Source: Chloroflexota bacterium (GTDB lineage Bacteria; Chloroflexota; Anaerolineae; Anaerolineales; E44-bin32). Taken from it: a stretch of 64,000 nucleotides of DNA. This document shows positions 23,806 to 48,286 of the stretch, piece by piece. Position numbers and translations under genes: made by a program. The stretch is taken from positions 13,135 to 77,134 of the forward strand of contig JADFRG010000010.1 in the NCBI GenBank assembly GCA_022561385.1, in the 5' to 3' direction. Positions within the stretch are counted from its first letter, which is position 1. Every line of letters starts with the position of its first letter. The notes below the pieces were generated by a model. The model was not told the DNA's origin, ran no database searches, and saw only the letters and a program-made list of their open reading frames with translations.

Positions 23806-23835
23806 TTGACCGATTTTCCCAGGCTGTGCTATGAT
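23806..23835 (+). promoter_or_regulatory. Promoter candidate for the aro leader/operon (TTGACC-N18-TATGAT)
   Basis: Hexamers at 23806-23811 and 23830-23835. The leader ATG at 23843 begins 7 nt after the -10 hexamer, so the leader may be leaderless or nearly so. Confidence 0.5.
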
Positions 23836-23842
23836 CCCGCAG

Positions 23843-23923
23843 ATGATTCGAACATCCTGGCGAAGCTTTGGCTATTATTATTTTGGAGGGTTGAGCGCTC
23901 AGCCGCTGCTTCGGCTTGTATAG
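23843..23923 (+). CDS. Candidate aro-operon leader peptide, 26 aa: MIRTSWRSFGYYYFGGLSAQPLLRLV
   Basis: My own translation of 23843-23923 (ATG ... TAG). Codons 6-14 contain Trp, Phe, Tyr-Tyr-Tyr and Phe. The ORF lies between the promoter-like hexamers and the terminator hairpin, directly upstream of the DAHP synthase gene. Confidence 0.6.
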   Translation: MIRTSWRSFGYYYFGGLSAQPLLRLV

Positions 23924-23945
23924 GTAGGCATCATCCACTATCCAG

Positions 23946-23973
23946 GCACCGAGCAACGGCTCGGTGCTTTTTT
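23946..23973 (+). terminator. Intrinsic terminator/attenuator hairpin in the aroF 5' leader
   Basis: GCACCGAGC-aacg-GCTCGGTGC forms a perfect 9-bp stem (23946-23967) followed by TTTTTT (23968-23973). It ends 27 nt before ATG 24001, which has the SD GGAGGAGG. There is no upstream + strand gene for it to terminate. Confidence 0.8.
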
Positions 23974-24000
23974 GTTTTCTACTAACCGAAGGAGGAGGAA

Positions 24001-25047
24001 ATGATCATTATTATGAAACATGACGCAACACAAGCCCAGATCGATTATGTGGTGGCAAAGGTGGAAGGCCTTGGATACGAGGCGCATTTGAGCGCCGGGC
24101 AGGAACGCACGATCGTGGGTGTGATTGGCGACGACCGCCCGATCGATCCCGGCAATTTTCAACCGATTCAAGGCGTCGAGAACGTGCTCTCGATATTAAA
24201 ACCTTTCAAACTCGCCTCCCGCGAGATGCATCCCATGGATACGGTGGTGGATGTTGACGGGCTGCTCATCGGCGGAAACGAGCTGGTGATTATGGCCGGA
24301 CCCTGCTCGGTCGAAAACCGAGATCAGCTATTGGAGACCGCCCACGCAGTTAAGGAGAGCGGCGCAACCATTCTGCGGGGCGGTGCCTTCAAGCCACGTA
24401 GCTCACCGTATAGCTTTCAGGGTCTGGGGGAAGAGGGGCTGGAACTCCTGGCAGAGGCGCGGCACGAAACGGGCCTGAAAATTATTACCGAAGCCATGTC
24501 GCCCGAGCAAGTCCCAGTTGTTGCCAAGTACGCGGACATCATCCAACTTGGGGCTCGAAATATGCAGAACTATGAGCTGCTGCGGGCCGCGGGGCGGGCG
24601 GGACTCCCGGTGCTGCTCAAGCGAGGATTGATGGCGACCATCGAGGAATGGTTGATGTCGGCCGAATACTTGCTGTCGGTTGGAAATGAGCGGATCATAC
24701 TTTGCGAGCGGGGGATCCGATCCTTCGAGAGCTACACTAGAAATACCACCGACATCAACGCCATCCCGGTCGTGCAGGAGCTCTCACACCTGCCGGTGAT
24801 TCTGGACCCCAGCCACAGCACTGGAAAGTGGGAGTACGTAACGGCCGTAGCGCGAGCCGGAGTGGCTGCTGGAGCAGATGGTCTGATCATAGAAGTCCAT
24901 CCCAATCCGGAAGAGGCGCTTTCGGACGGTGCCCAGAGTCTGCGGCCGGAGCGCTTTGCGGAATTGGTTGGGCAGGTCCGGGAAGTTGCCCGGGCGGTTG
25001 GACGGGAGCTGATTGAGCCGGAATGGACCTCGAAGACGCCCGCCTAA
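24001..25047 (+). CDS. aroF: 3-deoxy-7-phosphoheptulonate (DAHP) synthase, type I-beta with an N-terminal ferredoxin-like/ACT-like regulatory domain
   Basis: 348 aa. The first ~70 aa ([31 protein letters not shown]...) resemble the Thermotoga-type regulatory domain. The catalytic barrel carries [15 protein letters not shown] and [19 protein letters not shown]. Confidence 0.95.
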
Positions 25048-25895
25048 CAATCGTCGGCCTTGGGCTGATGGGCGGCTCCATGGCGCTCGCTCTGCGGCCG
25101 CGCTGCCGGGAGCTGGTCGGGATCGATTCGAATCCAGAGACCTTGGAGCTCGCGCGCCGAGCCGGAATCACGACCCAAGAATCAGATCCCGCGCAGGCCC
25201 ACACCGATGTGCTGGTCCTGGCAACGCCGGTGAAGGAAACCTTGAGATTACTTGAGGCCTTCCGATCGGACCCACCCGCGGTCCATTTGTTGATGGATAT
25301 TGGATCTACCAAACGACAGATTGTAGATGCGATGGAAATGCTTCCAAGCCGGGTCGCGGCAGTGGGAGGCCACCCATTGTGCGGGAAGGAGCGGGCAGGT
25401 TTTGCAGAGGCCGAGGCGGAATTATTCTTTGGGAGTTTATTTGTGCTGACTCCATGCTCACGGACCACGCCCAGCTCGCTCGCGCTTGCGGAACAGATTG
25501 TGGGTGCGCTCGGGGCCTCGGTCCGGCAAATGGAGGCCGCCCGGCACGACCGGCTGGTGGCCACCGCGAGCCACCTTCCTTACCTCTTGGCCACCGCGCT
25601 GATGAGGTCTGCGGAGTCGGTCGGCGGGAAGGATCCTGAACTATGGGACCTGGTTTCCTCGGGTTTCCTCAGCACCTCCCGGCTGGGAGCCAGTGATCTC
25701 ACCATGATGGTCGACATACTCACCACAAACCAGGACAACGTGCAGGAGGCGTTGGCGCTCGCTCAATCCGAGCTGGAGCAACTGCGCGAGCTGTTGGTCG
25801 GCGGGGAAATCGGGCGGCTGCGCGATTATTTGGAGCCCTCGCAGCTCAGGCGCGCTTCGATGAAGAATCCAGGGGGTAGCACTCGTGGAGCTTAA
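25023..25895 (+). CDS. tyrA: Prephenate (or arogenate) dehydrogenase
   Basis: 290 aa with the [15 protein letters not shown] Rossmann motif and the GGHPLCG motif. It overlaps the aroF 3' end by 25 nt. Confidence 0.9.
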
Positions 25896-27177
25896 AGTCA
25901 CAGGAGCCGCCAAGAACCTGCGAGGAACGATTCGAGTTCCTGGCGACAAATCTATGACACACCGTGCATTGCTCTTAGGAGCAATGGCCGGCGGTGCCAG
26001 CCGTCTGCGGGGAATGATGCGGGCGGGCGTGATCGATGCTATGCGCGACTGCCTGGCGGCGCTCGGGGTTGAGATCGAGAAGATAGATGAAGAAGAGACG
26101 CTTGTGCATGGGAGGCATTGGTTATCTCCAGACCGAATATTAGATTGTCGCAATTCAGGCACAACGATGCGATTCCTGATGGGAGCCCTGGCCGGCTCGT
26201 CCGTCTCGGCCACCCTGACCGGATCTCCGCGGCTTTCGCAACGGCCGATGGATCGAGTGGCAGAACCGCTGCGAAGGATGGGGGCCCAAATCGCCGGACA
26301 CAATGGCAGCGACCAGCCGCCGCTGCAGATCGCGGGCTCCCGGCTGCGCGGGATCGAATACGACATGCCGGTCGCCTCCGCCCAGGTGAAAACCGCCATC
26401 TTGTTGGCCGGGTTACATGCCGAAGGCCGCACGCTTATACACGAACCGGTGGCCTCCCGCGACCACTCCGAACGGTTGCTTCGACACCTGGGCGTGTCGG
26501 TGACGAACTCTAACGGCACGCTCCACCTTGAGCCCATTCAGGCCCCGCTTCCAGCATTCGAGTTTGTTATTCCGGGCGACCTCTCCGCGGCGGCCTTCAT
26601 GGTGGCGGCCGCCTTGCTGACTCCAGGCTCGGAGATCAGGGTTCAAAATTTGGGTCTCAACCCCACTCGTACCGGCCTGCTGAACACCATGCGGCGCATG
26701 GGGGCGACTATCGAAACCAGCGCTATTACGGAAACGGCCGGTGAGCCGACCGGTGAGCTGACCGCCACGTTTTCGCCCCTGAAAGGGATCGAGATTCAAG
26801 GAGAGCAGGTGGTGTCGATGATCGACGAAATTCCCGCCCTGGCGGTTGTCGCCACGCAGGCGCATGGGGAGACAAAGATCCGTGGAGCAGGCGAATTGCG
26901 GCTGAAGGAATCGGATCGCCTGTCCGGAATGACGGCCGAGTTAAGGAAAATGGGGGCCCAGATCGAGGAGCACCCGGATGGGCTCACCATCGAAGGCCCG
27001 ACCCCGCTCACTGGAACGCGAGTGCATTCGCATGGGGATCATCGGCTCGCCATGGCCCTGACGGTAGCCGGATTATTGGCCTCCGGGGAGACGATCATCG
27101 CAGACGCTGAAGTCATTCACGAGTCTTACCCCGAATTCGTAACAACTCTACGTTCGATCGGAGCAGAGCTGGAGTGA
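25885..27177 (+). CDS. aroA: 3-phosphoshikimate 1-carboxyvinyltransferase (EPSP synthase)
   Basis: 430 aa with a GTG start. Motifs: LRGTIRVPGDKSMTHRALLLGAMA, LKESDRL, DHRLAMA. Confidence 0.95.
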   Translation: MELKVTGAAKNLRGTIRVPGDKSMTHRALLLGAMAGGASRLRGMMRAGVIDAMRDCLAALGVEIEKIDEEETLVHGRHWLSPDRILDCRNSGTTMRFLMGALAGSSVSATLTGSPRLSQRPMDRVAEPLRRMGAQIAGHNGSDQPPLQIAGSRLRGIEYDMPVASAQVKTAILLAGLHAEGRTLIHEPVASRDHSERLLRHLGVSVTNSNGTLHLEPIQAPLPAFEFVIPGDLSAAAFMVAAALLTPGSEIRVQNLGLNPTRTGLLNTMRRMGATIETSAITETAGEPTGELTATFSPLKGIEIQGEQVVSMIDEIPALAVVATQAHGETKIRGAGELRLKESDRLSGMTAELRKMGAQIEEHPDGLTIEGPTPLTGTRVHSHGDHRLAMALTVAGLLASGETIIADAEVIHESYPEFVTTLRSIGAELE

Positions 27178-28070
27178 AAAAAGTCGTGCTTTTAGGCGCT
27201 CCGGTGGCCCACTCCTTCTCACCCACCATTCAGAACGCGGCCTTCAAGGAGGCCGACCTGGACTGGCGCTACCAGGCCTTGGAGATCGCCCCCGGAAATC
27301 TTGGCGCGACCCTCGCGCGCATGCGCGAGGAGGGATGGCCGGGCGCCAACGTGACCATCCCGTTCAAGGAGGCAGTATCGCCGCTCCTGGATGAGATTGA
27401 CCCTTCGGCGGACCGGACGTCGGCCGTCAATACCATCGTCAACAACAACGGCCATCTGGTGGGTCACAACACGGACTTAAGGGGATTCATGACCGATCTG
27501 AAGGCCCATTGGCAAGTCCCGAGTGCCGGACCTTCTCTTATCCTTGGAGCCGGCGGAGCCGCGCGGGCGGTGGCTTTCGGGTTGGCGGGTGAGGGCCTCG
27601 ACCTGACCTTCATCGCCAGGTCAAGCGGCCGCGCCGAACGATTGGCCGAGGACGTGCGCCGAGGCGGCGCGGCGGACGTGGCAACACTCCCCTGGGCGCG
27701 CGAGTTTTTCGTAAATTCTTCGAGCCAGTGCATCCTGGTGGTCAACGCCACCCCGTTGGGCATGATGCCTAATATCCGAAAATCGCCCTGGCCGGACGAT
27801 TTGCCCCTTCCCCCGGATGCTTTTGTTTATGATCTGGTCTACTCTCCCCCGGAAACTCGGCTGGTGCAGCAGGCGCATCAATCGGGGATCGAGGCCGTGT
27901 CCGGGGCCGGCATGTTGCTGGAACAAGCCGCCTTATCGTTTGAGCTCTGGACCGGCCAAACCGCCCCGCGCGAACGGATGCGAGCCGCACTTGGAAAGGC
28001 GTTAGGGCGATCGAGCGCCTGGGGGAAATTGGCAGGCCAGCCTAACCGCCGCGAGGTGTTGGATGCTTAG
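27174..28070 (+). CDS. aroE: Shikimate dehydrogenase
   Basis: 298 aa. The GTG start overlaps the aroA stop (GTGA). Motifs: GAPVAHSFSPTIQNAAF, NVTIPFKE, NTD, GAGGAARA. Confidence 0.9.
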   Translation: MKKVVLLGAPVAHSFSPTIQNAAFKEADLDWRYQALEIAPGNLGATLARMREEGWPGANVTIPFKEAVSPLLDEIDPSADRTSAVNTIVNNNGHLVGHNTDLRGFMTDLKAHWQVPSAGPSLILGAGGAARAVAFGLAGEGLDLTFIARSSGRAERLAEDVRRGGAADVATLPWAREFFVNSSSQCILVVNATPLGMMPNIRKSPWPDDLPLPPDAFVYDLVYSPPETRLVQQAHQSGIEAVSGAGMLLEQAALSFELWTGQTAPRERMRAALGKALGRSSAWGKLAGQPNRREVLDA

Positions 28071-29232
28071 ATTTCTGACCGCCGGAGAATCGCACGGGCC
28101 TGAACTGCTCGCGATCGTGGAGGGTATTCCTGCCGGCCTGGCGCTCACGGAAGCCGACCTGCTTCCCGACCTCGCCCGCCGCCAGGTGGGATTCGGGGTC
28201 GGGCCAAGAATGAAGTCCATCGAGCAGGACGAAGCTCAGATCGTATCGGGTGTGTTGGCCGGGCTCACCATCGGAGCTCCTATCGGCCTACGGATCATCA
28301 ATCGCGATCACACGAAGTGGAAGGGCCAGGAGATTCCGCCGATGACGGTCCCGCGTCCCGGCCATGCGGATCAAACGGCCGCGCTAAAATATGGCTACCC
28401 GGATTTACGCTTCAGCCTGGAGCGTGCCTCTGCGCGTGAGACGGCTGCGCGGGTGGCGGTAGGTGCCGTCTGCCGCAAGCTGCTCGCCGAGTTCGGCATA
28501 TCCATCGGGAGTTACGTCACGGAAATAGGCACCGCCTCCGCCGAATTTGGGGAACTGGATTTTAATCAGCGCTTCGAAGCGGCCGAGCGAAGCGAAGTAC
28601 GCTGCCCAACCGAGGCCGGTACGGCGGCCATGCGTGAAGAGATTCGGGCTGCCATGCAGGCTAAAGATACGTTGGGCGGCGTGTTTGAGGTGGTCGCCTT
28701 AAACGCCCCGCCGGGATTGGGCAGCCATGTGCATTGGGATCGGCGGCTTGGGGGGCGCGTGGCGGCGGCCATGATGAGCATCCATGCCATGAAAGGGGTT
28801 GAGATTGGCCCGGGCTTCGAAAACGCTCGAATGCGCGGCACGCAGGTCCACGATGAGTTCGAAACCTCGGACGAGCGAGTCCGCCGCCGGAGCAACCGTG
28901 CCGGCGGTCTCGAAGGAGGAATCACAACCGGCGACCCGCTCATCGTCCGGGTTGCGATGAAACCCATCTCGACCACACTGACCCCACGCGCCTCGGTGGA
29001 TCTGGCCACCGGTCAGGCGGCCGAAACCCGTTACGAGCGCTCAGATTTCTGCTCGGTCCCCCGCGCGGCCGTTGTGGGAGAGGCCATGCTTTGTATTGTG
29101 CTGGCAGAGGCGCTGCTTCGTAAACTCGGCGGCGATTCGGTTTCGGAGATGAAGCCCAGGTTCGACCAGCTGCCGCGGGGTCGCCTGGACGATTTTAAAA
29201 TGGTCAATGAGCCCATCATCTTCTGGGACTAG
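28063..29232 (+). CDS. aroC: Chorismate synthase
   Basis: 389 aa with the MLRFLTAGESHGP N-terminus and the RPGHAD and SARETA motifs. Confidence 0.95.
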   Translation: MLRFLTAGESHGPELLAIVEGIPAGLALTEADLLPDLARRQVGFGVGPRMKSIEQDEAQIVSGVLAGLTIGAPIGLRIINRDHTKWKGQEIPPMTVPRPGHADQTAALKYGYPDLRFSLERASARETAARVAVGAVCRKLLAEFGISIGSYVTEIGTASAEFGELDFNQRFEAAERSEVRCPTEAGTAAMREEIRAAMQAKDTLGGVFEVVALNAPPGLGSHVHWDRRLGGRVAAAMMSIHAMKGVEIGPGFENARMRGTQVHDEFETSDERVRRRSNRAGGLEGGITTGDPLIVRVAMKPISTTLTPRASVDLATGQAAETRYERSDFCSVPRAAVVGEAMLCIVLAEALLRKLGGDSVSEMKPRFDQLPRGRLDDFKMVNEPIIFWD

Positions 29233-30826
29233 CCGCGTGTCGGAAAACCTTCTTCGGATGCAACCCCTGAACATAGTGCTTGCAGGGCCTCCCGGCGCAG
29301 GCAAATCTGCCGTCGGGCGGCTGCTGGGAGAGCGCCTGAATCGCGAATTCGTGGACACCGATACGCTTGTGGAGCGGATGGCCGGAAAACCAATACACCA
29401 AATGTTTGAAGAGCAAGGTGAACCCGCGTTCCGGCAGATGGAGATCGAGGCCTGCCGACAGGTGGCAGAGCCGGCCGACCGCGTGATCGCTTGCGGAGGA
29501 GGCGCCTTGATGGACGCCGGCAGCCGGATCCTGATGGAGGCCGGCGGCACCCTCGTTTGTCTTACGGGTGAACCGGAGGTGCTCCTGGCCAGGCTGGGAA
29601 AGGACGGGTCTCGTCCACTCCTGGCAGGCGCGAGTCCGAGCGAGCGCCTGCAAGACTTGTTGGAGGCGCGCAAGGACACCTACGATTCGATACCGGCTCA
29701 GGTCGACACCACCAGCCTCTCGGTCGAGCAGGTTGCGGACCGGCTCGTAGAGCTCCCATTGGCGAAGCGGACGGTTCGAATGACGGCTAGCCGTCCGCGC
29801 CCGGGCTACGAGGTTTTGCTGGGGGAGCAATTGATCTCCAATCTGTCAGCGTTGCTGGAGCAGGCAGAGCTCTCGCCGCCCTACGTAGTCGTTTCAGACT
29901 CGAACGTCGCCCCACTGTACGAGGAAATCACACGCGCATCACTGGAATGTTCTTTTATCACGGTGCCCGCGGGGGAAAACCACAAGTCCCAGGAGACGTT
30001 ATATCAACTGTACACAACCTTCCTGGATTCCGGCGTGGATCGCAGCAGCACGGTGGTTGCCCTGGGCGGTGGAGTGGTGCTTGATCTGGCCGGCTTCGCG
30101 GCCGCGACCTACATGCGCGGAATTCGGTGGGCCGCCTTGCCTACGACCCTGCTGGCGGTTGTGGACGCCAGCCTTGGGGGTAAGGTCGGAATCAATCTCG
30201 CCGAGGGCAAGAACCTGATCGGCGCCTTCCATCCGCCCGGGGTCGTGCTGGCCGACCTGTCGACGTTAGCCACCCTACCCGAGGTTGAAGCGCGGACCGG
30301 GCTGGCCGAAATGATCAAGGCCGCGTTGATTGGCGACGCGGACCTTTTCACATCCATGGAATCGGGACCCACCTGGATCGGCCGCAGCTGGATCCATCGG
30401 GCAATACAGCTCAAGCTGACCATCGTGGACGAGGATCCGCAGGAGAGTGGACGGCGGGAGGCGCTCAACCTGGGTCATACGTTTGCCCACGCGCTGGAGG
30501 CCGCCAGCCGCTACCGTCTGCCTCACGGTCAGGCCGTCGCCATTGGATTGTTGGGCGCCACTCGGCTTGCTGGTGCCCTGGACCGCTGCGAGTCGACTCT
30601 GGAGGACCGCGTTCAGGAAGTGCTGCTTCGTTTTGGCCTACCGGTCCGCTTTTCCGGACTGGACACCGACCGCATACTCGATGCCATGAAACAGGACAAA
30701 AAGCGCAAGCAGGGGCGATCCCGGTTCGTAATTCCGATCCGTCCCGGTCGGGTCGAAAGCGGAATTGAGGCCCCTGAGGCGCTGATCCGTGACGTCGTGG
30801 ATGGATTGAGGGAAGGAACTCCATGA
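29207..30826 (+). CDS. Bifunctional shikimate kinase / 3-dehydroquinate synthase (AroK-AroB fusion)
   Basis: The N-terminal ~170 aa carry Walker A GPPGAGKS and FRQMEIEA (shikimate kinase). The C-terminal ~360 aa carry GGGVVLDLAGFAAATYMRGI and PTTLLAVVDASLGGKVGIN (DHQ synthase). The start is uncertain: ATG 29207, GTG 29237 or ATG 29258. Confidence 0.9.
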   Translation: MSPSSSGTSRVSENLLRMQPLNIVLAGPPGAGKSAVGRLLGERLNREFVDTDTLVERMAGKPIHQMFEEQGEPAFRQMEIEACRQVAEPADRVIACGGGALMDAGSRILMEAGGTLVCLTGEPEVLLARLGKDGSRPLLAGASPSERLQDLLEARKDTYDSIPAQVDTTSLSVEQVADRLVELPLAKRTVRMTASRPRPGYEVLLGEQLISNLSALLEQAELSPPYVVVSDSNVAPLYEEITRASLECSFITVPAGENHKSQETLYQLYTTFLDSGVDRSSTVVALGGGVVLDLAGFAAATYMRGIRWAALPTTLLAVVDASLGGKVGINLAEGKNLIGAFHPPGVVLADLSTLATLPEVEARTGLAEMIKAALIGDADLFTSMESGPTWIGRSWIHRAIQLKLTIVDEDPQESGRREALNLGHTFAHALEAASRYRLPHGQAVAIGLLGATRLAGALDRCESTLEDRVQEVLLRFGLPVRFSGLDTDRILDAMKQDKKRKQGRSRFVIPIRPGRVESGIEAPEALIRDVVDGLREGTP

Positions 30827-31290
30827 AACAAGTCCTGGTTCTACACGGTCCAAATCTGAACCTGCTGGGCGAGCGTGAGCCGGATCTTTACGGAACGCTT
30901 ACCCTTGCGCAGATCAACGATCGCGTCCAATCGGAAGCCGAACGGCTGGGAGTGAAAATCACGGTCGTCCAATCCAATCACGAAGGTGTGTTGATCGATG
31001 AGTTACATGCGGCCCGCGAGTGGGCCATCGGCGGAATCATCAATCCGGGCGGACTGTCACACACATCGGTTTCGCTTCGGGACGCCATCGCAGCCGTCGA
31101 ATATCCCGTGATCGAAGTCCACTTGTCCAACATCTACGCGCGCGAGCATTTCAGGCGGCGCTCGCTCACCGCGGCCGCGTGCTCTGGGGTCATATCGGGT
31201 CTGGGCTGGCAGGGTTACCTGATGGGTCTCCAGGCTATCGTTTCACAGAATGAAGAGGCTGCGACCGAGGATGGGAGCGAGACCGCCTAA
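30823..31290 (+). CDS. aroQ: 3-dehydroquinate dehydratase, type II
   Basis: 155 aa. Motifs: VLVLHGPNLNLLGEREPDLYG, NPGGLSHTSVSLRDA. The ATGA overlaps the upstream stop. Confidence 0.95.
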   Translation: MKQVLVLHGPNLNLLGEREPDLYGTLTLAQINDRVQSEAERLGVKITVVQSNHEGVLIDELHAAREWAIGGIINPGGLSHTSVSLRDAIAAVEYPVIEVHLSNIYAREHFRRRSLTAAACSGVISGLGWQGYLMGLQAIVSQNEEAATEDGSETA

Positions 31291-31401
31291 CAGGTCGGCG
31301 GCTCCAATCGGAAGCCGGAGCGTCAGACTGATTAAACTGCTTGTCGGCGATTTCCGGAGGCCTCATTCTGCACACATCGAAATGTCGGTGGCATGGATTG
31401 G

Positions 31402-31431
31402 TTGACAAACCTTCAATTCTTCTGATACTCT
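31402..31431 (+). promoter_or_regulatory. Promoter candidate upstream of lysC (TTGACA, then GATACT/TACTCT about 16-18 nt downstream)
   Basis: TTGACA lies at 31402-31407. The -10-like region cTGaTACTCT lies at 31422-31431. Confidence 0.4.
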
Positions 31432-31463: not shown

Positions 31464-31553
31464 ATGATTTACGGACGCGATCGAGCGACGAGTACCGGCA
31501 CCGGATTGACTATGGGCATGACATTCAGCTCCCGGCAGATGGAGGGCGCTTAG
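31464..31553 (+). CDS. Candidate lysC-asd leader peptide, 29 aa: MIYGRDRATSTGTGLTMGMTFSSRQMEGA
   Basis: This is the 3' part of ORF-track entry 31341-31553, taken from the ATG downstream of the promoter-like hexamers. It has 5 Thr and 4 Met codons (aspartate-family products) and no Lys. SD support is weak (GAAGG 13 nt upstream). Confidence 0.35.
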   Translation: MIYGRDRATSTGTGLTMGMTFSSRQMEGA

Positions 31554-31586
31554 CCTAGTTAGACGGATAGATTTCAGAAAATAGGC

Positions 31587-31620
31587 AGGCCGCTCTCAAC
31601 CCGGGAGCGGCCTATTTTAT
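31587..31620 (+). terminator. Hairpin plus A/U-rich tract just upstream of lysC (attenuator, or the aro-operon terminator)
   Basis: AGGCCGCTC (31587-31595) pairs with GAGCGGCCT (31605-31613), a 9-bp stem with a 9-nt loop, followed by ATTTTATT. It ends about 16 nt before ATG 31636. Confidence 0.6.
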
Positions 31621-31635
31621 TGCTGCGAGCAGCCA

Positions 31636-33057
31636 ATGACCCTTGATGAAACGCGATTGAAAACCCTCACCATGAAATTCGGCGGGACTTCCTTAGGAAC
31701 CGCCGAGGCCATCATGCAATCCGCCGAAATTGCGAAGGCCGCCCGAGATCACACCGCGGACCGGATAGCCGTGGTCGCCTCGGCCATTCATGGGGTCACC
31801 GATGGGCTGCACGAGGCGACCAGTGCCGCCGCCGGAGGAGACGAGCGATATCTGCAGGTCATCGCGGAACTGAGGGATGTCCACCGTCGGTGCGCCGAGG
31901 CGCTGTTGGAGCAGGAGTCCAGAAATGCGGTGGCGGAAATCGACCAGCTCCTGGAGGGCTTCTCGGGGTTCTGCGAGAGCGTGCGGACGTTGGGCGAGGC
32001 CGGGCCGCGCGCGCTGGACCATGCGATGAGCCTGGGCGAGAAGATGAGCGTCATCCTTTTGGCGGCCTCCATGCGGCAGCTCGGAGTTGCGGCGATCGCG
32101 GTAGACGCCTCGGAGGTCATCGTTACCGACGATCGATTCCAGGACGCCGCGCCCGACTTGGAAGCCACGCGGCAAAAGGCAACTGCAACCCTGATACCCG
32201 TTCTCGAACGCGGCGAGACGCCGGTGATCACCGGTTTCATCGGAGCCACACGCGAGGGCGTAACAACGACCCTGGGGCGCGGCGGGTCTGATTTCAGCGC
32301 AGGCTTGATCGCGGCATGCCTGGACAGCGATGAACTGTGGATATGGACCGACGTGGATGGCGTAATGACCGCCGATCCGAAGGTTGTGGACTCGGCCCGG
32401 ACGATTGCGACACTGGGCTACGAGGAGGTTCGGGAACTATCTTATTTCGGTGCCAAGGTGCTGCACCCGAAAACCATACAATCCGTATTCGAGACCGAAA
32501 TTCCGATACGTGTGAAAAATACGTTTGACCCATCCCACCCCGGGACCTTGATCGTTCCCAATCCGGAGGAAAGCAACGGTGCAATCAAGGCCGTTACCGC
32601 GGTGCGAAATGTGAGTCTCATCACGGTCGAGGGCAAAGGCATGATGGGCGTCCCAGGAATCGCGGCTCGAACATTCGAGGCCGTGGCCAGCACCGGAGCC
32701 AGCGTTCTGCTCATCTCGCAGGCCTCGTCGGAGCAAAGCATCACCTTTGCCGTTCCCAGGACAAACGCCTCCACCGCGGTCGAAGCTCTGGAGTCGGAAT
32801 TTGAGCGGGTGCTCAGCCGAGGGAATATCGACCGAATATGGGCTCAAGATGACATCACAATTGTCACTGTTGTCGGGAGTCGCATGCGGGAAACCGCCGG
32901 AGTGGCCGGTCGGGTCTTCACCGCCACAGGACTGCGGGGCATCAATGTGGTCGCCATCGCGCAAGGGTCGTCCGAGTGCAGCATCTCGCTGGTGGTTCGG
33001 GATCGTGATGGCGACGATGCGGTACGCGCCATCCACGAACTGGTTATTGAAGGATGA
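31636..33057 (+). CDS. lysC: Aspartate kinase (monofunctional, two C-terminal ACT domains)
   Basis: 473 aa with the KFGGTSLG motif, the amino-acid kinase fold pattern and two ACT-like repeats (VSLITVEGKGMMGVPGIAAR..., ITIVTVVGSRMRETAGVAGR...). The start could also be ATG 31672. Confidence 0.9.
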   Translation: MTLDETRLKTLTMKFGGTSLGTAEAIMQSAEIAKAARDHTADRIAVVASAIHGVTDGLHEATSAAAGGDERYLQVIAELRDVHRRCAEALLEQESRNAVAEIDQLLEGFSGFCESVRTLGEAGPRALDHAMSLGEKMSVILLAASMRQLGVAAIAVDASEVIVTDDRFQDAAPDLEATRQKATATLIPVLERGETPVITGFIGATREGVTTTLGRGGSDFSAGLIAACLDSDELWIWTDVDGVMTADPKVVDSARTIATLGYEEVRELSYFGAKVLHPKTIQSVFETEIPIRVKNTFDPSHPGTLIVPNPEESNGAIKAVTAVRNVSLITVEGKGMMGVPGIAARTFEAVASTGASVLLISQASSEQSITFAVPRTNASTAVEALESEFERVLSRGNIDRIWAQDDITIVTVVGSRMRETAGVAGRVFTATGLRGINVVAIAQGSSECSISLVVRDRDGDDAVRAIHELVIEG

Positions 33058-33115
33058 TGGGCAGCCAACCAGTCCGAGAGCGGTTTAGGGATCTAGAGAG
33101 AGGTGGAGAGAACCT

Positions 33116-34189
33116 ATGACTGAAAAAATTCCGGTGGCTGTGCTGGGGGGCACAGGCGCAGTCGGCCAGCGTTTCGTCAGCCTGCTGGCGGATCATCCCT
33201 GGTTTGAAATCGTTTCTGTTACCGGATCTAAACGCAGCGAAGGACGGCAATACGGTGAGGCCGTAAGGTGGCATTTGTCAACTGAGATTCCACCGATGGT
33301 GCGAGAGATGCAGGTGGACCGCGGCGATGAAGGTCCGAAAGGCGCGCAGCTATTGTTCTCGGCGCTGCCGGCCCGAGTGGCGCTAGAAACTGAGCCCCAA
33401 CTGGCAGAGGAGGGTTACATCGTGTGTTCAAACGCCTCCTCGCACCGCATGGGAACCGACATCCCGCTGCTCATCCCCGAGATCAATGCCGACCACCTCA
33501 CGCTCATAGAGCGCCAGCGTGATCTCCGCGGATGGTCGGGATTGATCGTGACCAGCCCGAACTGCTCGGCCACCGGAATCGTCTTCCCGCTCAAAGCACT
33601 GGATGACGCTTTTGGGGTGAGCCAGGTGCATGCCGTGACGATGAACGCCATCAGCGGCGCCGGCTATCCAGGCGTTGCGTCGATAGAGATATATGACAAC
33701 GTCATCCCGTACATCCGGGATGAGGAAGTGAAAATCGCAGAGGAGACAAGAAAGCTGCTCGGGCGGCTCAGCGGGGAGACTATCGAGCCCGCGGAAATGG
33801 CTGTCAGTGCTCAAGCAAACCGTGTTCCGGTGATGGACGGACACCTGGCGGCGCTTTCGATCGGGCTGAAAAAGGCCACCGATGTGGAAGGTGTGGAGGC
33901 CACTCTCGCGGCGTTCGGCGGAGTGGAGGGCCTCCCCAGCGCCCCCTCCCACCCACTTATCGTGCGTTCCGAGGAGAACCGCCCTCAGCCGCGCCTCGAT
34001 CGCGAGGCTCAAGACGGCATGGCGGTTTCGGTCGGACGGGTGCAGCCCTGCTCCGTGCTCGATTTTCGGATGGTCACCCTGGTTCACAACACGGTGCGTG
34101 GCGCCGCAGGCGGGGCGCTCCTGAACGCTGAATTGCTGGTGGCGGAGGGCTATTTAGGCGAAGCGGCCCGGGAGCTCGCGTCCGCTTGA
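33116..34189 (+). CDS. asd: Aspartate-semialdehyde dehydrogenase
   Basis: 357 aa. It has the VAVLGGTGAVGQRF Rossmann motif and the active-site SPNCSATG. GGTGGAGAG lies upstream. Confidence 0.95.
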   Translation: MTEKIPVAVLGGTGAVGQRFVSLLADHPWFEIVSVTGSKRSEGRQYGEAVRWHLSTEIPPMVREMQVDRGDEGPKGAQLLFSALPARVALETEPQLAEEGYIVCSNASSHRMGTDIPLLIPEINADHLTLIERQRDLRGWSGLIVTSPNCSATGIVFPLKALDDAFGVSQVHAVTMNAISGAGYPGVASIEIYDNVIPYIRDEEVKIAEETRKLLGRLSGETIEPAEMAVSAQANRVPVMDGHLAALSIGLKKATDVEGVEATLAAFGGVEGLPSAPSHPLIVRSEENRPQPRLDREAQDGMAVSVGRVQPCSVLDFRMVTLVHNTVRGAAGGALLNAELLVAEGYLGEAARELASA

Positions 34190-34331
34190 CCCGAGTGTAT
34201 AGAACCGCGGCCTGTTTGCGAAATACGACCGCATCCAACGATCCAGTCAGGCTTTCCAGCGTACCCTGGATTGGATCTTACGACGGGTCATGCGTTCCGG
34301 GGATTTCTTGGACAGGATTGCGGGGATCTGA

Positions 34332-40944: not shown

Positions 40945-41001
40945 GTTTCTTCAGGGTTGCCTCAAGTGCAAGTCACGCGCCCCGGCATGGGTCGTGAGCG
41001 G

Positions 41002-42663: not shown

Positions 42664-42686
42664 AACGCGGCTACCTTCCCCTTTAT

Positions 42687-43700
42687 TCAATCTCCGGACT
42701 TCACCGTCACCGGATCGAGAAAGGGCATCATCGCGCGCAGTTTCGCCCCCACTTCTTCGATCGGGTGCTGCTGCTCCTTCTTGCGTTGTTCCTCAAACCA
42801 TGGCCGGCCGCGCGCATTTTCTTCGATCCAATTGTTAGCATAGGTGCCGTCCTGGATCTCGCGAAGCATTTGTTTCATCTCGCCCACCGTCTCTTCAGTG
42901 ATCAGGCGCGGGCCGCCGGTATAGTCTCCGTGCTCGGCAGTCTCGCTGATCGAGTAACGCATGTAGTTCAGGCCTCCCCGGTACATGAGATCCACGATCA
43001 ATTTGAGCTCGTGCAGGCACTCAAAATACGCTATTTCGGGCTGGTAACCGGCCTTGACCAGCACTTCGAATCCAGCTTTGACCAGCGCGCTCACTCCGCC
43101 GCACAACACGGCCTGCTCGCCAAATAGATCGGTCTCGGTCTCTTCGGCAAACGTGGTCTCAATCACTCCCGCCCGCGTGGCTCCCAGCCCTTTGGCATAG
43201 GCGAGAGCGAGCGATTTAGCGCCCCCGCTCGGGTCCTGATGGACGGCCAGGAGCGCCGGGGTGCCCTCGCCGTCTTGAAAAGTCTCGCGCACCCGATGCC
43301 CGGGCGCCTTGGGTGCCACCATACTCACGTCCACTTCTGCCGGCGGCTCGATCGTGCCAAAGCGAATGTTGAAGCCGTGGCTGAACATCAGGGTTTTTGA
43401 GGGCTTCAGGTTGGGGGCAATATCTTCGGAATAGATCGCCGGTTGAGAGGTGTCGGGGGCGAGCATCATAATCACATCTGCCCACTCGGCGACGGCGGGC
43501 ACGGTGTTTACGGTCAGTCCCTGCGCCTCGGCCGCATCACGACTCTTGCTCTCCGGCCGCAGCCCGACCTGCACCTCAGCTCCGCTGTCGCGCAGGTTCA
43601 GCGCATGTGCATGTCCCTGCGACCCATAACCAATAATGGCTACTTTCTTGGCCTGGATCAGGCTCAGATCGGCGTCTTTGTCGTAGTAAATGGTTGCCAT
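42687..43700 (-). CDS. ilvC: Ketol-acid reductoisomerase (class I)
   Basis: The start is at ATG 43700 ([15 protein letters not shown]) with GGAGGA upstream. It carries the [19 protein letters not shown] motif. Confidence 0.95.
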
Positions 43701-43752
43701 GGATACAGGGTTTCCTCCACTAGTAAAGGACGGATGCTCCGCCAGCGGAGCA

Positions 43753-44322
43753 TCAGCTGGCGGAGCCGTTAGGCACTCGGGCCGCCACAAATTCAGGATT
43801 CGTGCTCGGAACATCCGAACCACGGGTCATCGCCACACGTCCGGTTCGCACCATTTCGAGGATGCCGAACGGGCGCAGCACCTCGCAGAGACTTTCGATC
43901 TTCTCCTCGGTGCCGGTGATCTCCACGATGAGGGAATCCGGGGTCACATCGACCGCCCGAGCCCGGAACACGTCGCACATCTGCAGCACCTGAGCCCGTG
44001 TCGACGAATCCGCCTTGACTTTGATCAATGCCAGATCGCGCATGACGGTGGGGAGATGGGTGACGTTTTCAACACGGAGCACATTCACCAGCTTGTACAG
44101 GTTGGCCTCCACGCGGCGCGCGACGACGTCGTCGGTTTTCACGGCGATGGTCATGCGAGATATACCGGGGCGATCGGTGGGGCCAACCGCGAGCGACTCG
44201 ATATTAAAGGCACGCCGGCGGAAAAGCGAAGCCACCCGATTCAAGACCCCTGGCTTGTCTTCGACGTATACCACGAAGGTGTGGATGCCTTCACGCAAGG
44301 GATTCCTGCCGTTATCGGTCAT
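43753..44322 (-). CDS. ilvN: Acetolactate synthase small (regulatory) subunit
   Basis: 189 aa with an ACT domain ([34 protein letters not shown]). The ATGA overlaps the ilvB stop, and there is a strong GGAGG SD. Confidence 0.9.
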
Positions 44323-46046
44323 CTCCCGCCTCCTACCAGTTCGTCTTCCGCGGTTTCTACAATGGAGCTTGGGCGCCGGATCATGGCGTCCAAATCCGCC
44401 CCGGCCGGCACCATGGGGTAGACGCTGTCTTCCTGCACGACCCTAAAATCGATAATTACCGTTCCCGGTTCTTGCTGGGCCCGGCGCACTGCGTCCTCCA
44501 CCTGGCCCCGCTCCTCAACCCGGAGTCCCAACAGACCGTGGGCATCGGCCAGTTTCACGAAGTCGGGACTGAGCATGGGTGTGGCCGCGTAGCGACGCCC
44601 GTAGAAAAATTCCTGCCACTGACGAACCATACCCAGAAATCCGTTGTTGATGATCGCAACGTTGATCTTGATTCCCTCCTGGGCACAAGTTGACAGCTCG
44701 GCCTGGGTCATTTGGAAACCGCCGTCGCCTACGATGGCCCAGACTTCGTCCTCGGGCTTGGCGAATCGCACGCCGATCGCGGCGGGTAGGCCAAAACCCA
44801 TCGTTCCCAATCCCCCGGACGTGATCAGCGTGAACGGCTTTTCGTGTTTGAAGTACTGGGCCTCCCACATCTGATGCTGCCCGACGTCGGTGACGATAAT
44901 CGGCTTGCCTTCCGTTATCCGCCATATGTCGTTGATGACATGCGCCGCGTAAAGAGCTCCGGTATCTGGCAGACTTTGAATGTCACGCACGGCCGAGTCA
45001 CCCCTGAGCTCATCGATATGCTCCAACCAGGCCGTATGTTCCTTTTGGGTCAGTTGAGGCAGCAGGATCTCCAGGGTCTCGCGCAGATCGCCAACGATCC
45101 CAACATCGACCCGCACGTTTTTGTCGATTTCCGTGGGATCAATGTCGATGTGAATCTTTTTGGCATTCACCGCGTATGTCTTCAGGTTTCCTGTTACCCG
45201 GTCGTCGAAACGCATCCCGAAAGCCAATAGAAGATCCGCTTCTTGAATGGCGTGATTGACCCAGCTTTCACCATGCATCCCCATCATGCCCTGATTGAGC
45301 GGATGGCTGGCCGGTATACCTCCGAGCCCAAGCAGGGTGGTCGTCACCGGGATCTGGGTCTTCTCGGCGAAATCGATCAGGATTTGCATCGCTCCCGACA
45401 TCATGACTCCGTGCCCGGCCAGGATGATCGGTCGCTCAGCTTCTTCGATCAACTCCAGCGCGTGTTCGTACTCTTCGGGCAGCGCGCGTAAGTCGGGCCG
45501 ATATCCGGGCAGCCGCTCGGGGGCATCGGCTGGAACGTACTCGATCGAAGCAATCTGGGCGTCCTTGCTGATGTCTACCAGCACCGGACCCGGCCGACCC
45601 GATCGGGCCACATAAAAAGCTTCTCGCATTGTGGGCCCGATCTCCTCCACGTCTGTGACGAGATAGTTGTGCTTCGTTATCGGTAACGTGACACCGGTCA
45701 CGTCAGTCTCCTGAAAGGCATCGCTGCCGATGGCGGTGGAGGGGACCTGCCCGGTAATACAGACGATCGGAGACGAATCCATCATTGCGGTGGCGATTCC
45801 CGTAACCAGATTGGTTGCCCCGGGCCCGGAGGTTGCCATGGCCACTCCGACCCGGCCGGAGGCGCGGGCATATCCGTCTGCCATATGGGCCGCACCTTGC
45901 TCATGCCGCACTAATACGTGCCGCACAGGGTAATCAAGCATCGCATCGTAGGTCGGCAGGATCGCGCCTCCCGGGTAGCCGAAGACAACTTCGACCCCCT
46001 CTTGCGTTAGCACCTCCCAGACAATTTGTGCTCCCTTTCGTTCCAT
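44319..46046 (-). CDS. ilvB: Acetolactate synthase large (catalytic) subunit
   Basis: ThDP enzyme pattern (GYPGGAILP, GLGTMGFGLPAAIG...GDGGF). The start is taken at ATG 46046 with GAGGAGAAG upstream; the ORF-track start is 46082. Confidence 0.95.
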   Translation of the reverse strand: MERKGAQIVWEVLTQEGVEVVFGYPGGAILPTYDAMLDYPVRHVLVRHEQGAAHMADGYARASGRVGVAMATSGPGATNLVTGIATAMMDSSPIVCITGQVPSTAIGSDAFQETDVTGVTLPITKHNYLVTDVEEIGPTMREAFYVARSGRPGPVLVDISKDAQIASIEYVPADAPERLPGYRPDLRALPEEYEHALELIEEAERPIILAGHGVMMSGAMQILIDFAEKTQIPVTTTLLGLGGIPASHPLNQGMMGMHGESWVNHAIQEADLLLAFGMRFDDRVTGNLKTYAVNAKKIHIDIDPTEIDKNVRVDVGIVGDLRETLEILLPQLTQKEHTAWLEHIDELRGDSAVRDIQSLPDTGALYAAHVINDIWRITEGKPIIVTDVGQHQMWEAQYFKHEKPFTLITSGGLGTMGFGLPAAIGVRFAKPEDEVWAIVGDGGFQMTQAELSTCAQEGIKINVAIINNGFLGMVRQWQEFFYGRRYAATPMLSPDFVKLADAHGLLGLRVEERGQVEDAVRRAQQEPGTVIIDFRVVQEDSVYPMVPAGADLDAMIRRPSSIVETAEDELVGGGR

Positions 46047-46111
46047 GATCTTCTCCTCTGGCGTCCCTTCGATCCGCGACAAATCCTTCGCCCGTCAGTA
46101 TTGTTGGATGG

Positions 46112-47785
46112 CTAAACGCAAACCGCCCCTCGGGAGGCAGACGATACCAACTTGGCATACTTGGCCATCACGCCTCGCTTATATCGAGGCTCGGGCGGCT
46201 GCCAGTCTTCCAAGCGCGCCTGGATATCTACCTGCGACATTTCGACATCGATGCGGCGGCCCTCCACGTCAATCACAATCTGGTCCTCGTCTCGCAGCGC
46301 CGCGATCGGACCTCCGCGAGCGGCTTCCGGCGCCACGTGTCCCGCCATGAGGCCGTGTGTTGCCCCCGAGAATCGGCCGTCGGTCAGCAGTGACACGGAG
46401 TCTCCCAATCCTGCGCCTACGATGGCCGCCGTGACTCCCAGCATCTCGCGCATCCCCGGGCCGCCGACGGGGCCCTCGTATCGAATAACCACCACGTCGC
46501 CTTTCTTGATGTCTCCGGACTGGACCGCTTCAAAGGCCGACTCTTCAGAGTCAAATACCCGGGCCGGACCCCTGTGGTAGGTCATGTTGTGGCCCGCGAT
46601 CTTGACAATGCAGCCCTCCGGCGCCAGGTTCCCTCTCAGCACCACTAATCCCCCGGTTGGGCTGATCGGGTCGCTTAACGGCCGGATAACTTCCTGACCG
46701 GCGGTTTCGGTCGCCTCTCTGGCCTCTTCCCCAATCGTTCTTCCGGTCACCGTGATCGCATCGGAGTGAAGAATCCCCGCCTCGACCAGTCGATTCGCAA
46801 CGAGCTGCCAACCGCCGGCCTCGTATACGTCCGTCGCCACGTACCGACCGCTAGGCTTCAGATCGGCGAGCAGCGGCGTTTTCGAGCTGATACGGTCGAA
46901 ATCCTCCATCTCGAGCTCTACCTCGACCTCGTTGGCAATGGCAATGAGATGTAATACTGCGTTGGTGGATCCTCCGGTCGCCGCTACCGAGGCGATCGCG
47001 TTTTCCAGCGCATCGCGAGTGATGATCTGGCGTGGGCGGAGATCGCGCTCCAATAGGTCCATCACCATTTCTCCGGCGGCAAACGCGGCCTGGTCCTTCT
47101 CTTCTCGGGCGGCAGGCACACTGGCACTCCCCATGATGGAGATTCCGAGGAACTCGCTGACGGTGGCCATCGTGTTGGCGGTGAATTGACCTCCGCAGGC
47201 CCCCACGCCAGGGCAAGCGACGTCTTCCAGCGCTTTGAGCTCTGCATCCGATATGGTGCCGGCGGCATGCGCACCGACCGCTTCGAAGACGTCCTGTATC
47301 GTGACGTCTCTTCCTTCGTATCGCCCGGGCTCAATGGAGCCTCCATACAGCATCAAACCGGGAAGGTCGAGACGGGCCAACGCCATGATGGTCCCCGGGA
47401 TAGTCTTGTCGCAGCCGGAGATGGCGATCAGGGCGTCGAACATGTTGCCGCGGGCGACAAGCTCGATAGAGTCGGCGATGACTTCGCGGCTGACGAGGGA
47501 AGTTTTCATCCCTTCGGCACCCATGGTGATCCCATCCGAAATCGACACGGTGTTAAATTCCATGGGAGTTCCACCCGCGGCCCGAATGCCTTCCTTGACC
47601 TTCGCCGCCAGCCGGCGCAAATGGAAGTTACAAGGCCCGATCTCGATCCAGGTATTGGCTACGCCTATGAGGGGTCGGCTCAGGTCTTCGTCGCTAAATC
47701 CGGCCGCTTTCAACATGGCTCGAGCCGGTGCGCGGCTGGGTCCTTCTGTGATGGCCCGGCTCCGCTGTCGAAGGTCTCTCGCCAT
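46112..47785 (-). CDS. ilvD: Dihydroxy-acid dehydratase
   Basis: 557 aa. Motifs: [28 protein letters not shown]. Confidence 0.95.
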
Positions 47786-47821
47786 CAGGAAACGCGCTCG
47801 AAAATCGACGGGTTGTGCATC

Positions 47822-48028
47822 TTAGCCGTTGAAGCTCTCCATTAGCGCCTCACCCGATCCACGCTCCTCCCCACCGGTCGCGTCTTCAACCTCCTGCTTG
47901 GTCGAATCCTCCGCCTCGGTTGGGTGGGCGGGTGAGGTCGGGGGTAAAGGGGTGCGAGCTTGTTCTTCATCGCGCCTTGGGGTCGACGATCCAGCCCCGT
48001 CGCCTGGATGACCTTGTACTTTTTCCAT
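47822..48028 (-). CDS. Hypothetical small acidic Pro/Glu-rich protein (68 aa) between the ilv attenuator and ilvD
   Basis: ATG 48028 is preceded by the strong SD AGGAGGAG. The product MEKVQGHPGDGAGSSTPRRDEEQARTPLPP...EALMESFNG is low-complexity. I recognise no homology, and its coding status is unproven. Confidence 0.4.
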   Translation of the reverse strand: MEKVQGHPGDGAGSSTPRRDEEQARTPLPPTSPAHPTEAEDSTKQEVEDATGGEERGSGEALMESFNG

Positions 48029-48057
48029 CGTTTCTCTCCTCCTGCGGCAGCCAAGTA

Positions 48058-48092
48058 GCCAAAAAATAAAAGCACCTCCCAGTTGGGAGGTG
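48058..48092 (-). terminator. Intrinsic terminator/attenuator hairpin in the ilv-leu 5' leader
   Basis: The minus-strand RNA is CACCTCCC-aact-GGGAGGTG (8-bp stem, 48092-48073) followed by CTTTTATTTTTT. It lies 32 nt after the leader ORF stop and immediately upstream of the AGGAGGAG SD. Confidence 0.8.
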
Positions 48093-48124
48093 TGGTTGTT
48101 TTTCAAGCTTCTGTGATTAGTCCG

Positions 48125-48223
48125 CTACACCGCCTCAACCAGTTTTCGCTTGCCGCCCTCAATAAGGACGAGAAGCTCAGAAATAATAACCAGCGAAATA
48201 ATCAGGAAACTAACGATTGACAT
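48125..48223 (-). CDS. Candidate ilv-leu leader peptide, 32 aa: MSIVSFLIISLVIISELLVLIEGGKRKLVEAV
   Basis: My own translation of the minus strand from 48223 to 48125 (ATG ... TAG). There are 6 Ile, 6 Leu and 5 Val codons among 32. It lies upstream of the terminator hairpin and the 11-gene ilv/leu operon. Confidence 0.65.
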   Translation of the reverse strand: MSIVSFLIISLVIISELLVLIEGGKRKLVEAV

Positions 48224-48258
48224 CGATTTCAGCCCATCGGGACTGCATATTGGCGACA

Positions 48259-48286
48259 ACGTTATCACGGATCTTGGATAAGTCAA
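48259..48286 (-). promoter_or_regulatory. Promoter candidate for the ilv-leu leader (TTGACT-N16-TAACGT on the minus strand)
   Basis: The -35 lies at 48286-48281 and the -10 at 48264-48259, about 35 nt upstream of the leader ATG. The -10 hexamer is weak. Confidence 0.3.

Follow-up and report, generated by a model that had tools for sequence, protein, structure and literature searches.

Three operons for amino-acid biosynthesis (aro, lysC-asd and ilv/leu) lie in a stretch of 64,000 nucleotides (nt) of contig JADFRG010000010.1 from a Chloroflexota bacterium (hereafter, the window), and each is preceded by the same module: a promoter, an open reading frame (ORF) of 26-32 codons rich in end products of the pathway, and a strong hairpin followed by a U-run. 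We consider it very likely that the three leaders are ribosome-mediated (leader-peptide) transcription attenuators. They have every feature of this class that can be tested in silico, save a protector helix in the lysC leader, and relatives appear to conserve them in the manner of attenuators: the codon cluster holds to its amino-acid class as the peptide drifts, the stem of the terminator shows covariation, and the 3' end of the ORF complements the 5' arm of its own terminator.

In the mechanism that we propose, each operon would have its own sigma-70-type promoter, from which the transcript would begin with the short ORF. The codons of this ORF would sense Phe/Tyr(/Trp) in aro, Thr and Met in lysC-asd, and Ile/Leu/Val in ilv-leu. 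With ample charged tRNA, the ribosome would reach the stop codon with its footprint over the last codons, that is, over the upstream strand of the antiterminator; with this strand covered, the GC-rich hairpin and U-run would form and RNA polymerase would stop short of the first structural gene. A shortage of cognate charged tRNA would stall the ribosome on the cluster of sensing codons; the stalled ribosome of the aro and ilv leaders would melt the protector helix and leave the ORF 3' end free to pair with the 5' arm and loop of the terminator; the antiterminator, once formed, would exclude the terminator and the operon would be read through. The lysC leader is apparently without a protector helix, and there antitermination would be the default, with only a ribosome at the stop codon turning termination on. 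In all three leaders of the window, the predicted upstream strand of the antiterminator consists of the last codons, at or overlapping the stop codon, so that a terminating ribosome would occlude this strand directly.

One module before three operons

Hairpin and promoter scans covered positions 2001-62000 of the window (60 kb). With a strong hairpin taken as at least eight pairs, at least six of them GC, followed by a T-run (consensus scan), four strong terminators were found, three of which are those of the aro, lysC and ilv leaders; the fourth (13145-13099) is positioned after a gene end. The best two plus-strand promoter matches within 22-42 kb are the aro and lysC leader promoters. Because the aro and ilv leaders each have a divergent gene on their upstream side, the hairpins of these two leaders cannot be 3' ends of co-oriented genes, and their assignment as ordinary 3' terminators was ruled out.

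A sequence-only reading of this DNA had described the module as five elements (promoter-like hexamers, a biased short ORF, a spacer, a hairpin with a U-run, and a start soon after it), and all five were found at each site when coordinates were rechecked, with some details revised. The spacer, put at 22-33 nt, measures 20-34 nt from stop codon to stem over the three leaders. The lysC leader is rich in Thr and Met and has no Lys codon. The next start after the terminator is that of aroF or lysC in the first two leaders; in the ilv leader it is that of a 68-codon ORF (48028-47822), and ilvD starts only at 47785. The statement that no T-box or riboswitch is visible was borne out: the whole window had no Rfam match at the gathering threshold, to a T-box, a riboswitch or otherwise, and lax scans of the three leaders returned nothing significant, the aro and lysC leaders having no match at all. 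Below the threshold, the ilv leader came closest, scoring 27.9 bits with Phe_leader (RF01859), whose gathering score is 55. None of the Rfam leader families (Phe_leader, Thr_leader RF00506, Leu_leader RF00512, His_leader and Trp_leader) reached its gathering score, the T-box covariance model (specifier loop plus T-box antiterminator) matched neither the window nor the leaders, and the Rfam scans placed no lysine or SAM riboswitch aptamer upstream of lysC in the window.

Codon bias and downstream pathway

The comparison set consisted of the window and 160 loci fetched around relatives of aroF and lysC (designated by L numbers), with 170 strong terminators; for the aro relatives, a DAHP synthase scan with one genome per species gave 80 loci. 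An F/Y/W-rich ORF, defined by at least five such codons in eight and an ORF end just upstream of the terminator, precedes 31 of the 36 terminators that stand before aro genes and none of the 134 others. Likewise, a T/M-rich ORF stands before 10 of the 15 terminators that precede lysC and before one of the 155 elsewhere. Across the 170 terminators, codon bias matches the downstream pathway almost perfectly. The scan for the pattern, conceived in the sequence-only reading as genome-wide, was run over this set centred on aroF and lysC, and it is there that bias and pathway agree.

The aro leader

The aro promoter (TTGACC-18-TATGAT, 23806-23835, + strand; 10 of 12 consensus matches, TG before the -10 hexamer) is kept in L001 and L002. 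The leader ORF (MIRTSWRSFGYYYFGGLSAQPLLRLV, 26 codons, 23843-23923, +), to which F/Y-rich ORFs correspond at the same position in 30 loci, carries the putative regulatory cluster FGYYYF (23867-23884, +). The terminator, identified by the hairpin scan (23944-23979, +), has a stem of 11 pairs, seven of them GC (23944-23969), and a U-run at 23970-23979 (TTTTGTTTT); the first gene after it is aroF, which starts at 24001. In minimum-energy folds, CGAAGCTTTGGCT (23861-23873) pairs with AGCCGCTGCTTCG (23901-23913) to give a predicted protector helix (23861-23913, +) that encloses the YYYF codons and that, by folding, is disrupted by a ribosome footprint on the Tyr codons. The last leader codons (23907-23918, +) are the predicted upstream strand of the antiterminator, pairing with the terminator 5' arm at 23944-23955, and folding predicts this antiterminator only with a ribosome on the F/Y codons.

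A short F/Y(/W) ORF and a strong terminator precede the aro operon in 30 loci, which are labelled Anaerolineae, Anaerolineales, Chloroflexi, Chloroflexia or Chloroflexota and whose operons begin with aroF or, more often, aroH-aroF. The aro leader type of the cultured Anaerolinea thermophila is represented by L030. The clusters (for example, FYFYAYFY, FYYYF, FWFSYAYYFF, FYFSYVYFYGF and YFFWFYFY) share their amino-acid class, and the peptides are otherwise dissimilar. In the terminator alignment A1 (29 leaders), all eight consensus pairs show compensatory double changes and none is broken. The last codons of the ORF complement the 5' arm and loop of its own terminator, many aro leaders having in common the motif GCCGTTG..GCTTAA, and duplexes of the ORF end averaged -13.75 kcal/mol with the cognate arm versus -12.10 kcal/mol with non-cognate arms (permutation p = 0.001). 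Throughout the family, the predicted antiterminator upstream strand ends at or beside the stop codon.

At equilibrium, the aro terminator of the window had a predicted probability of about 0.5 (0.52) without a ribosome or with a ribosome at the stop codon, and of 0.05, 0.007 and 2e-5 when the A site occupied each of the three Tyr codons (2e-5 at Y13). Where the equilibrium profile was flat, folds of truncated transcripts and duplex tests were used instead. Transcripts truncated before the 3' arm gave the three expected states in most aro members: a protector helix around the F/Y codons when the ribosome was absent, the antiterminator when it stood on the F/Y cluster, and a free 5' arm when it stood on the stop codon. 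Predicted pairing of the 5' arm was higher in the stalled state than without a ribosome (p = 6e-4) and than in the stop state (p = 3e-3), and both differences were above those of dinucleotide-shuffled controls (p = 3e-5 and 6e-3, respectively).

In 20 of 26 aro leaders (the window and 25 loci), 7-12 nt separate the -10 hexamer from the leader ATG downstream of it, the distance being 7 nt in the window (23830-23845 region), L001 and L002. This spacing implies that most aro leader ORFs would be translated from leaderless or near-leaderless mRNA, which would account for the missing Shine-Dalgarno sequence of the aro leader; moreover, a fixed promoter-to-ORF spacing is not expected of a chance ORF.

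The ilv leader

The ilv promoter (48286-48259, - strand), read directly as TTGACT (48286-48281), 16 nt and the extended -10 TGaTAACGT, was unflagged by the consensus scan, and the same layout occurs in L161-L164. It is followed by the leader ORF (MSIVSFLIISLVIISELLVLIEGGKRKLVEAV, 48223-48125, -), in which 17 of the 32 codons encode I, L or V, and by a terminator found in the hairpin scan (48092-48061, -) with a stem of eight pairs, six of them GC (48092-48073), and a U-run at 48072-48061 (CTTTTATTTTTT). The minimum-energy fold (z = -2.6 versus shuffles) contains a predicted protector (48211-48106, -), a helix of 21 base pairs in which the ORF start, AGTTTCCTGATTATTTCGCTG (48211-48191), pairs with the region past the stop codon, TAGCGGACTAATCACAGAAGCT (48127-48106), and which is lost with a ribosome on codons 7-20. 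Truncated-transcript folds predict an antiterminator (48140-48081, -) between GGTTGAGGCGGTGT (48140-48127, overlapping the stop codon) and CACACCTCCCAACT (48094-48081) only when the ribosome is at codons 7-20, and neither without a ribosome nor with one at the stop codon.

Leaders rich in Ile/Leu/Val and followed by a terminator precede ilvD or ilvB in L007, L016, L017 and L026 (Anaerolineae), and six more were reached through IlvD homologues of 77-87% identity (L161, L162/163, L164, L165, L166 and L170). Ten distinct leaders of this type, homologous or analogous, have 14-19 I/L/V codons within 29-42. Their terminator arms vary and are always complementary (CACCTCCC, GCGCCTCC, ACCGAGTCGCC, AACCGCCC, AGAGCCGCC and GAGCCGCCCC), and every ORF end is matched, by compensatory changes, to the 5' arm and loop of the same leader, for example in L007 (GGTTGGGC with GCCCAAC) and L165 (GGTTTGGGC with GCCCAAACC). 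Cognate duplexes averaged -17.5 kcal/mol versus -15.8 kcal/mol for non-cognate ones (p = 0.02).

Two further features accompany this leader. A hairpin of six base pairs, CAGTCC-CGAT-GGGCTG (48245-48230, -), stands just upstream of the leader start codon, and hairpins of other sequence are found at the same place in L161 (GGCTC-TTCG-GAGCT) and L162 (GTGGGC-AAG-GCCCAC); they might act in 5' stability or as a pause. The 68-codon ORF between the attenuator and ilvD (- strand) is acidic and of low complexity and has a strong Shine-Dalgarno sequence. At the corresponding place, L161, L163, L164, L165, L170, L007 and L016 have ORFs of 55-71 codons, with conservation confined to the C-terminus (..ALME[ST][YF]NG or ..L.[DE]CYN) and with synonymous codon changes. 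Pfam assigned the ORF of the window to no family; the conserved C-terminus and the synonymous changes make it look like a real small protein.

The lysC leader

The lysC leader is the weakest of the three attenuator calls, yet it is well supported. Its promoter (TTGACA-16-GATACT, 31402-31429, +; 10 of 12 consensus matches) is kept in L001, L002, L081-83, L105 and L153. The leader ORF (MIYGRDRATSTGTGLTMGMTFSSRQMEGA, 29 codons, 31464-31553, +) has five Thr codons plus Met, clustered as T.T.T..TM.MT (31488-31523, +). The terminator (31587-31622, +), found by the scan and kept in relatives, has a stem of 11 pairs, eight of them GC (31587-31613), then the U-run ATTTTATT, and the first gene after it is lysC (start 31636), whose product has an N-terminal extension, MT...L.TLTMKFGG, that is kept in relatives.

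Close versions of this leader were obtained from a LysC metagenome scan and from genome loci, and comprise six distinct sequences (window, L081, L083, L001, L002 and L105) and L153. The five Thr codons are invariant as Thr and vary only synonymously (ACC/ACT, ACA/ACG/ACT), whereas the codons between them change amino acid (S/R, G/E/K, L/E/T and F/I/T), and over the entire ORF the variable columns are spread evenly among the codon positions (10, 9 and 10), without an excess at the third. Judged by these substitutions, the leader peptide as a whole is without purifying selection and only its Thr and Met codons are under it; invariant Thr codons amid drifting neighbours are the hallmark of a leader peptide that matters for its regulatory codons alone.

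By folding, a predicted antiterminator (31542-31597, +) joins GAGGGCGCTTAGCCTAGT (31542-31559, the last codons and the stop codon) to AATAGGCAGGCCGCTCTC (31580-31597, which includes the terminator 5' arm). The ORF 3' end is conserved as ATGGAGGGCGCTTAGCCTAG; its pairing partner, TAGGC.GGCCGCTC.C, has the 5' arm of the terminator within it. In folds of the window and five relatives, the antiterminator is the predicted default without a ribosome, persists with a ribosome on the Thr/Met codons, and is lost with a ribosome at M26 or at the stop codon.

More distant orthologues of lysC in the set have varied upstream regions. A leader with 12 Thr codons (MNRVSLTTTTTTTTTTTTRSAG) and a terminator lie upstream of lysC in L108, a TGTTTTTGM leader and a terminator in L103, and two tandem Met-rich leaders with terminators in L144; a candidate Met-rich leader with a terminator also precedes a Cys_Met_Meta_PP-like gene in L104. 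SAM-I riboswitches were found in L099 (2738-2862), L120 (2764-2884), L007 (9080-9208, -) and L103 (7092-7201) at 87-95 bits, and those of L099 (95 bits) and L120 (87 bits) stand directly before lysC orthologues. SAM-I aptamers before lysC in relatives and a Thr/Met leader in the window would amount to different sensors on the same gene. In L084-L088, which are metagenomic and encode LysC about 70% identical to that of the window, lysC directly follows aroQ without a leader and is joined to the aromatic operon.

Alternative explanations

Several observations weigh against attenuation as the explanation of all three leaders. The locus sample was baited with aroF and lysC and hence offers no neutral genome-wide background. 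Equilibrium terminator profiles are flat for most aro homologues, and the ilv terminator wins at equilibrium (P = 0.97) at any ribosome position; the profiles are flat because the terminators are too stable, and the case for an ilv switch is accordingly a kinetic one, made from folds of truncated transcripts. The aro occupancy effect is modest (0.70 versus 0.58-0.61), and the ilv antiterminator of L016 is not the minimum-energy fold. No protector helix was found in folds of the lysC leader, such that an untranslated leader would adopt the antiterminator; this leader also has no codon for Lys, its family is shallow (six close sequences with little covariation), and its terminator could double as the end of the aro operon. 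Finally, a clear Shine-Dalgarno sequence is present in none of the three leader ORFs of the window, and for lysC and ilv the near-leaderless start offers no explanation: the lysC leaders and the ilv leader of the window have 5' untranslated regions of about 30 nt, unlike the aro leaders. We nonetheless favour leader-peptide attenuation, as the sequence-only reading did, on the strength of the conserved amino-acid class, the covariation and the complementarity of ORF end and terminator.

For lysC alone, an alternative interpretation is that the hairpin at 31587-31622 mainly ends the aro operon and lysC simply has a promoter to itself, the Thr/Met ORF being an accident of the lineage or serving translation only. 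There is no other terminator between the end of aroQ (31290) and lysC, lysC follows aroQ without any leader in L084-88, and the shallow family without a protector helix would fit as well. We consider this unlikely because the lysC promoter lies upstream of the hairpin, so that lysC transcripts must cross it, because the Thr codons are selectively conserved, and because, in all six relatives, the 5' arm of the terminator pairs with the end of the ORF and its stop codon. The unrelated Thr-run or Met-rich leaders with terminators before lysC in L108, L103 and L144 also speak for a regulatory role of the lysC leader.

Still less probable, in our judgement, is that the hairpins are conditional terminators sensed by a trans-acting factor (a TRAP- or PyrR-like protein, uncharged tRNA or a metabolite) and that the ORFs are incidental. 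In its favour, translation of the ORFs is a prediction, those of lysC and ilv have no obvious Shine-Dalgarno sequence, and the ilv terminator does not respond to ribosome position at equilibrium. However, the Rfam scans gave no T-box, riboswitch or other family; nucleotides drift within a conserved reading frame and amino-acid class, the Thr codons varying only synonymously; the stop codon overlaps the antiterminator strand; and the -10-to-ATG spacing is fixed. A protein- or ligand-binding site would be expected to show none of these features. That the ORFs are chance frames, or small functional hydrophobic peptides beside ordinary terminators or insulators, is highly improbable even though short ORFs are common in DNA of 60% GC and the Ile/Leu/Val peptide resembles a transmembrane helix, since the aro association is 31/36 versus 0/134, the bias always fits the downstream pathway, and the peptide sequence drifts with only the amino-acid class kept. 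Conservation limited to the amino-acid class likewise led us to reject the ORFs as small membrane peptides.

Genome context

Gene identities on both strands were assigned through NCBIfam, with an ORF map used in addition for the ilv/leu operon. The aro operon (24001-31290, +) comprises aroF (DAHP synthase), tyrA, aroA, aroE, aroC, an aroK-aroB fusion and aroQ; the operon of lysC (aspartate kinase) and asd (archaeal type) follows at 31636-34189 (+); and the opposite strand carries ilvD-ilvB-ilvN-ilvC-leuA-leuC-leuD-cimA-leuB-ilvE-pheA (47785-34332, -). A hairpin is present and a U-run absent at the convergent gene ends of asd and pheA (34190-34331). Canonical intrinsic terminators are rare in the window, and the lineage may use hairpin-plus-U terminators mainly for regulation.

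The final gene of the ilv/leu operon, pheA (prephenate dehydratase, 35153-34332, -), starts 11 nt after ilvE, which would place phenylalanine synthesis under the Ile/Leu/Val leader and not the aromatic one. The same operon has cimA alongside leuA, which suggests that isoleucine is made via the citramalate route. Chorismate mutase type I (aroH, 23788-23411, -) is monocistronic in the gene map and divergent from the aro leader promoter; it is divergent likewise in L001 and L002, and in most other Anaerolineae the F/Y leader is followed first by aroH. An inversion apparently took aroH out of the attenuated operon in the lineage of the window. Apart from aroH, the window holds no further amino-acid biosynthetic operon; its remaining genes include sugar oxidoreductases, a peptide ABC transporter, an amylase, formate-dehydrogenase-like genes and similar.

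Probable attenuation in the Anaerolineae

DAHP synthase places the window in the Chloroflexota, class Anaerolineae, order Anaerolineales, an assignment that the sequence-only reading had left to a phylogenetic marker; the best genome matches are metagenome-assembled genomes (MAGs) with 90% and 87% identity. The suggestion in that reading that leader peptides are a general strategy of this organism instead of riboswitches is only partly supported: aro and ilv leaders occur class-wide, but SAM riboswitches precede lysC orthologues in relatives. A wider proposal, which we put forward tentatively, is that the Anaerolineae possess a class-wide ribosome-sensed amino-acid regulon ('ribulon') of near-leaderless aromatic attenuators together with Ile/Leu/Val, Thr/Met and possibly Arg and Met attenuators. 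If so, it would be the first systematic case in the Chloroflexota, transcription and translation would be tightly coupled, the very first ribosome binding the nascent RNA at its 5' end, and canonical intrinsic terminators in this lineage would be mainly regulatory devices and not gene ends.

When the fetched loci were searched by motif for trp, his, thr and arg genes, argG-argH in L004 was the only usable case. There, in an Anaerolineales MAG, an Arg-rich short ORF with six CGN codons (MISQLRFRRPSRRFTRFISGWLAGRACV; strand-oriented 14885-15035, -) and a terminator lie about 230 nt upstream of argG-argH. This element may be an Arg attenuator, on weak evidence, because GC-rich DNA often contains Arg-rich frames.

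Proteobacteria and Actinobacteria are established users of leader-peptide attenuation, and for some Firmicutes it has been demonstrated or predicted (PMC2965389, PMC9413887, PMC5794164). The regulators mentioned for Chloroflexi in the literature searched are T-boxes and riboswitches (PMC3766115). A full-text literature search found no description of leader-peptide attenuators in Chloroflexi or Anaerolineae, although the survey of Lopatovskaya et al. (2010) might cover some; the three leaders thus appear to be new attenuator families in a phylum in which the mechanism is undescribed. The mechanism itself is textbook and would not surprise specialists. Its extension to the Chloroflexota would bring classical leader-peptide attenuation to a large, mostly uncultured group (Anaerolineae) for which Rfam has no model, and the aro, ilv and lysC families are alignable and could become covariance models for annotation. 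The predicted control runs from Phe/Tyr to the common shikimate pathway, from Thr/Met to aspartate kinase, and from Ile/Leu/Val to an operon that includes cimA and pheA. If attenuation of this kind operates, these organisms should couple transcription to translation, and the near-leaderless start of the aro ORFs would ensure that the sensing ribosome loads once the RNA emerges.

Comparison with known attenuators

The architecture resembles that of the enterobacterial leaders trpL, pheL, ilvL/ivbL, thrL, hisL and leuL, in which a promoter-proximal short ORF with clustered cognate codons is combined with mutually exclusive protector, antiterminator and terminator helices, the last an intrinsic terminator before the first gene. 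As in thrL (Thr and Ile) and ilvL (I/L/V), several amino acids would be sensed together. The leaders described here differ in having no sequence or structure homology to the enterobacterial ones, in their host phylum (Chloroflexota), in the placement of the predicted antiterminator upstream strand at or over the stop codon, in the lack of a protector helix in lysC, and in the putatively near-leaderless start of many aro leader ORFs.

The closest parallel to the aro leader in function is aroR of Corynebacterium glutamicum, a Phe-Tyr-Phe leader before aroF (DAHP synthase) according to the account of Neshat et al. (2014) in PMC11802643. Both place a Phe/Tyr leader peptide before an operon that begins with DAHP synthase, and the parallel is functional only: as presented in that source, aroR is actinobacterial and has a Phe-Tyr-Phe tripeptide cluster, whereas the Anaerolineae clusters have 4-10 F/Y/W codons, and the Anaerolineae element is class-wide and usually also covers aroH. 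The leaderless or near-leaderless arrangement recalls the polycysteine short ORFs of mycobacteria (bioRxiv 10.1101/834739), in which stalling on a sensing ORF also remodels downstream RNA. Those ORFs sense Cys and act on translation by sequestration of the ribosome-binding site, whereas the Anaerolineae aro leaders have canonical intrinsic terminators and would sense aromatic amino acids. The ilv leader is likewise comparable to those of C. glutamicum ilvBNC (PMC11857589) and Staphylococcus aureus (PMC5794164), where a branched-chain-rich leader and a three-hairpin attenuator precede ilv genes. It belongs to another sequence family, and its operon starts with ilvD, carries cimA and pheA, and has a conserved ORF of 55-71 codons between the attenuator and ilvD.

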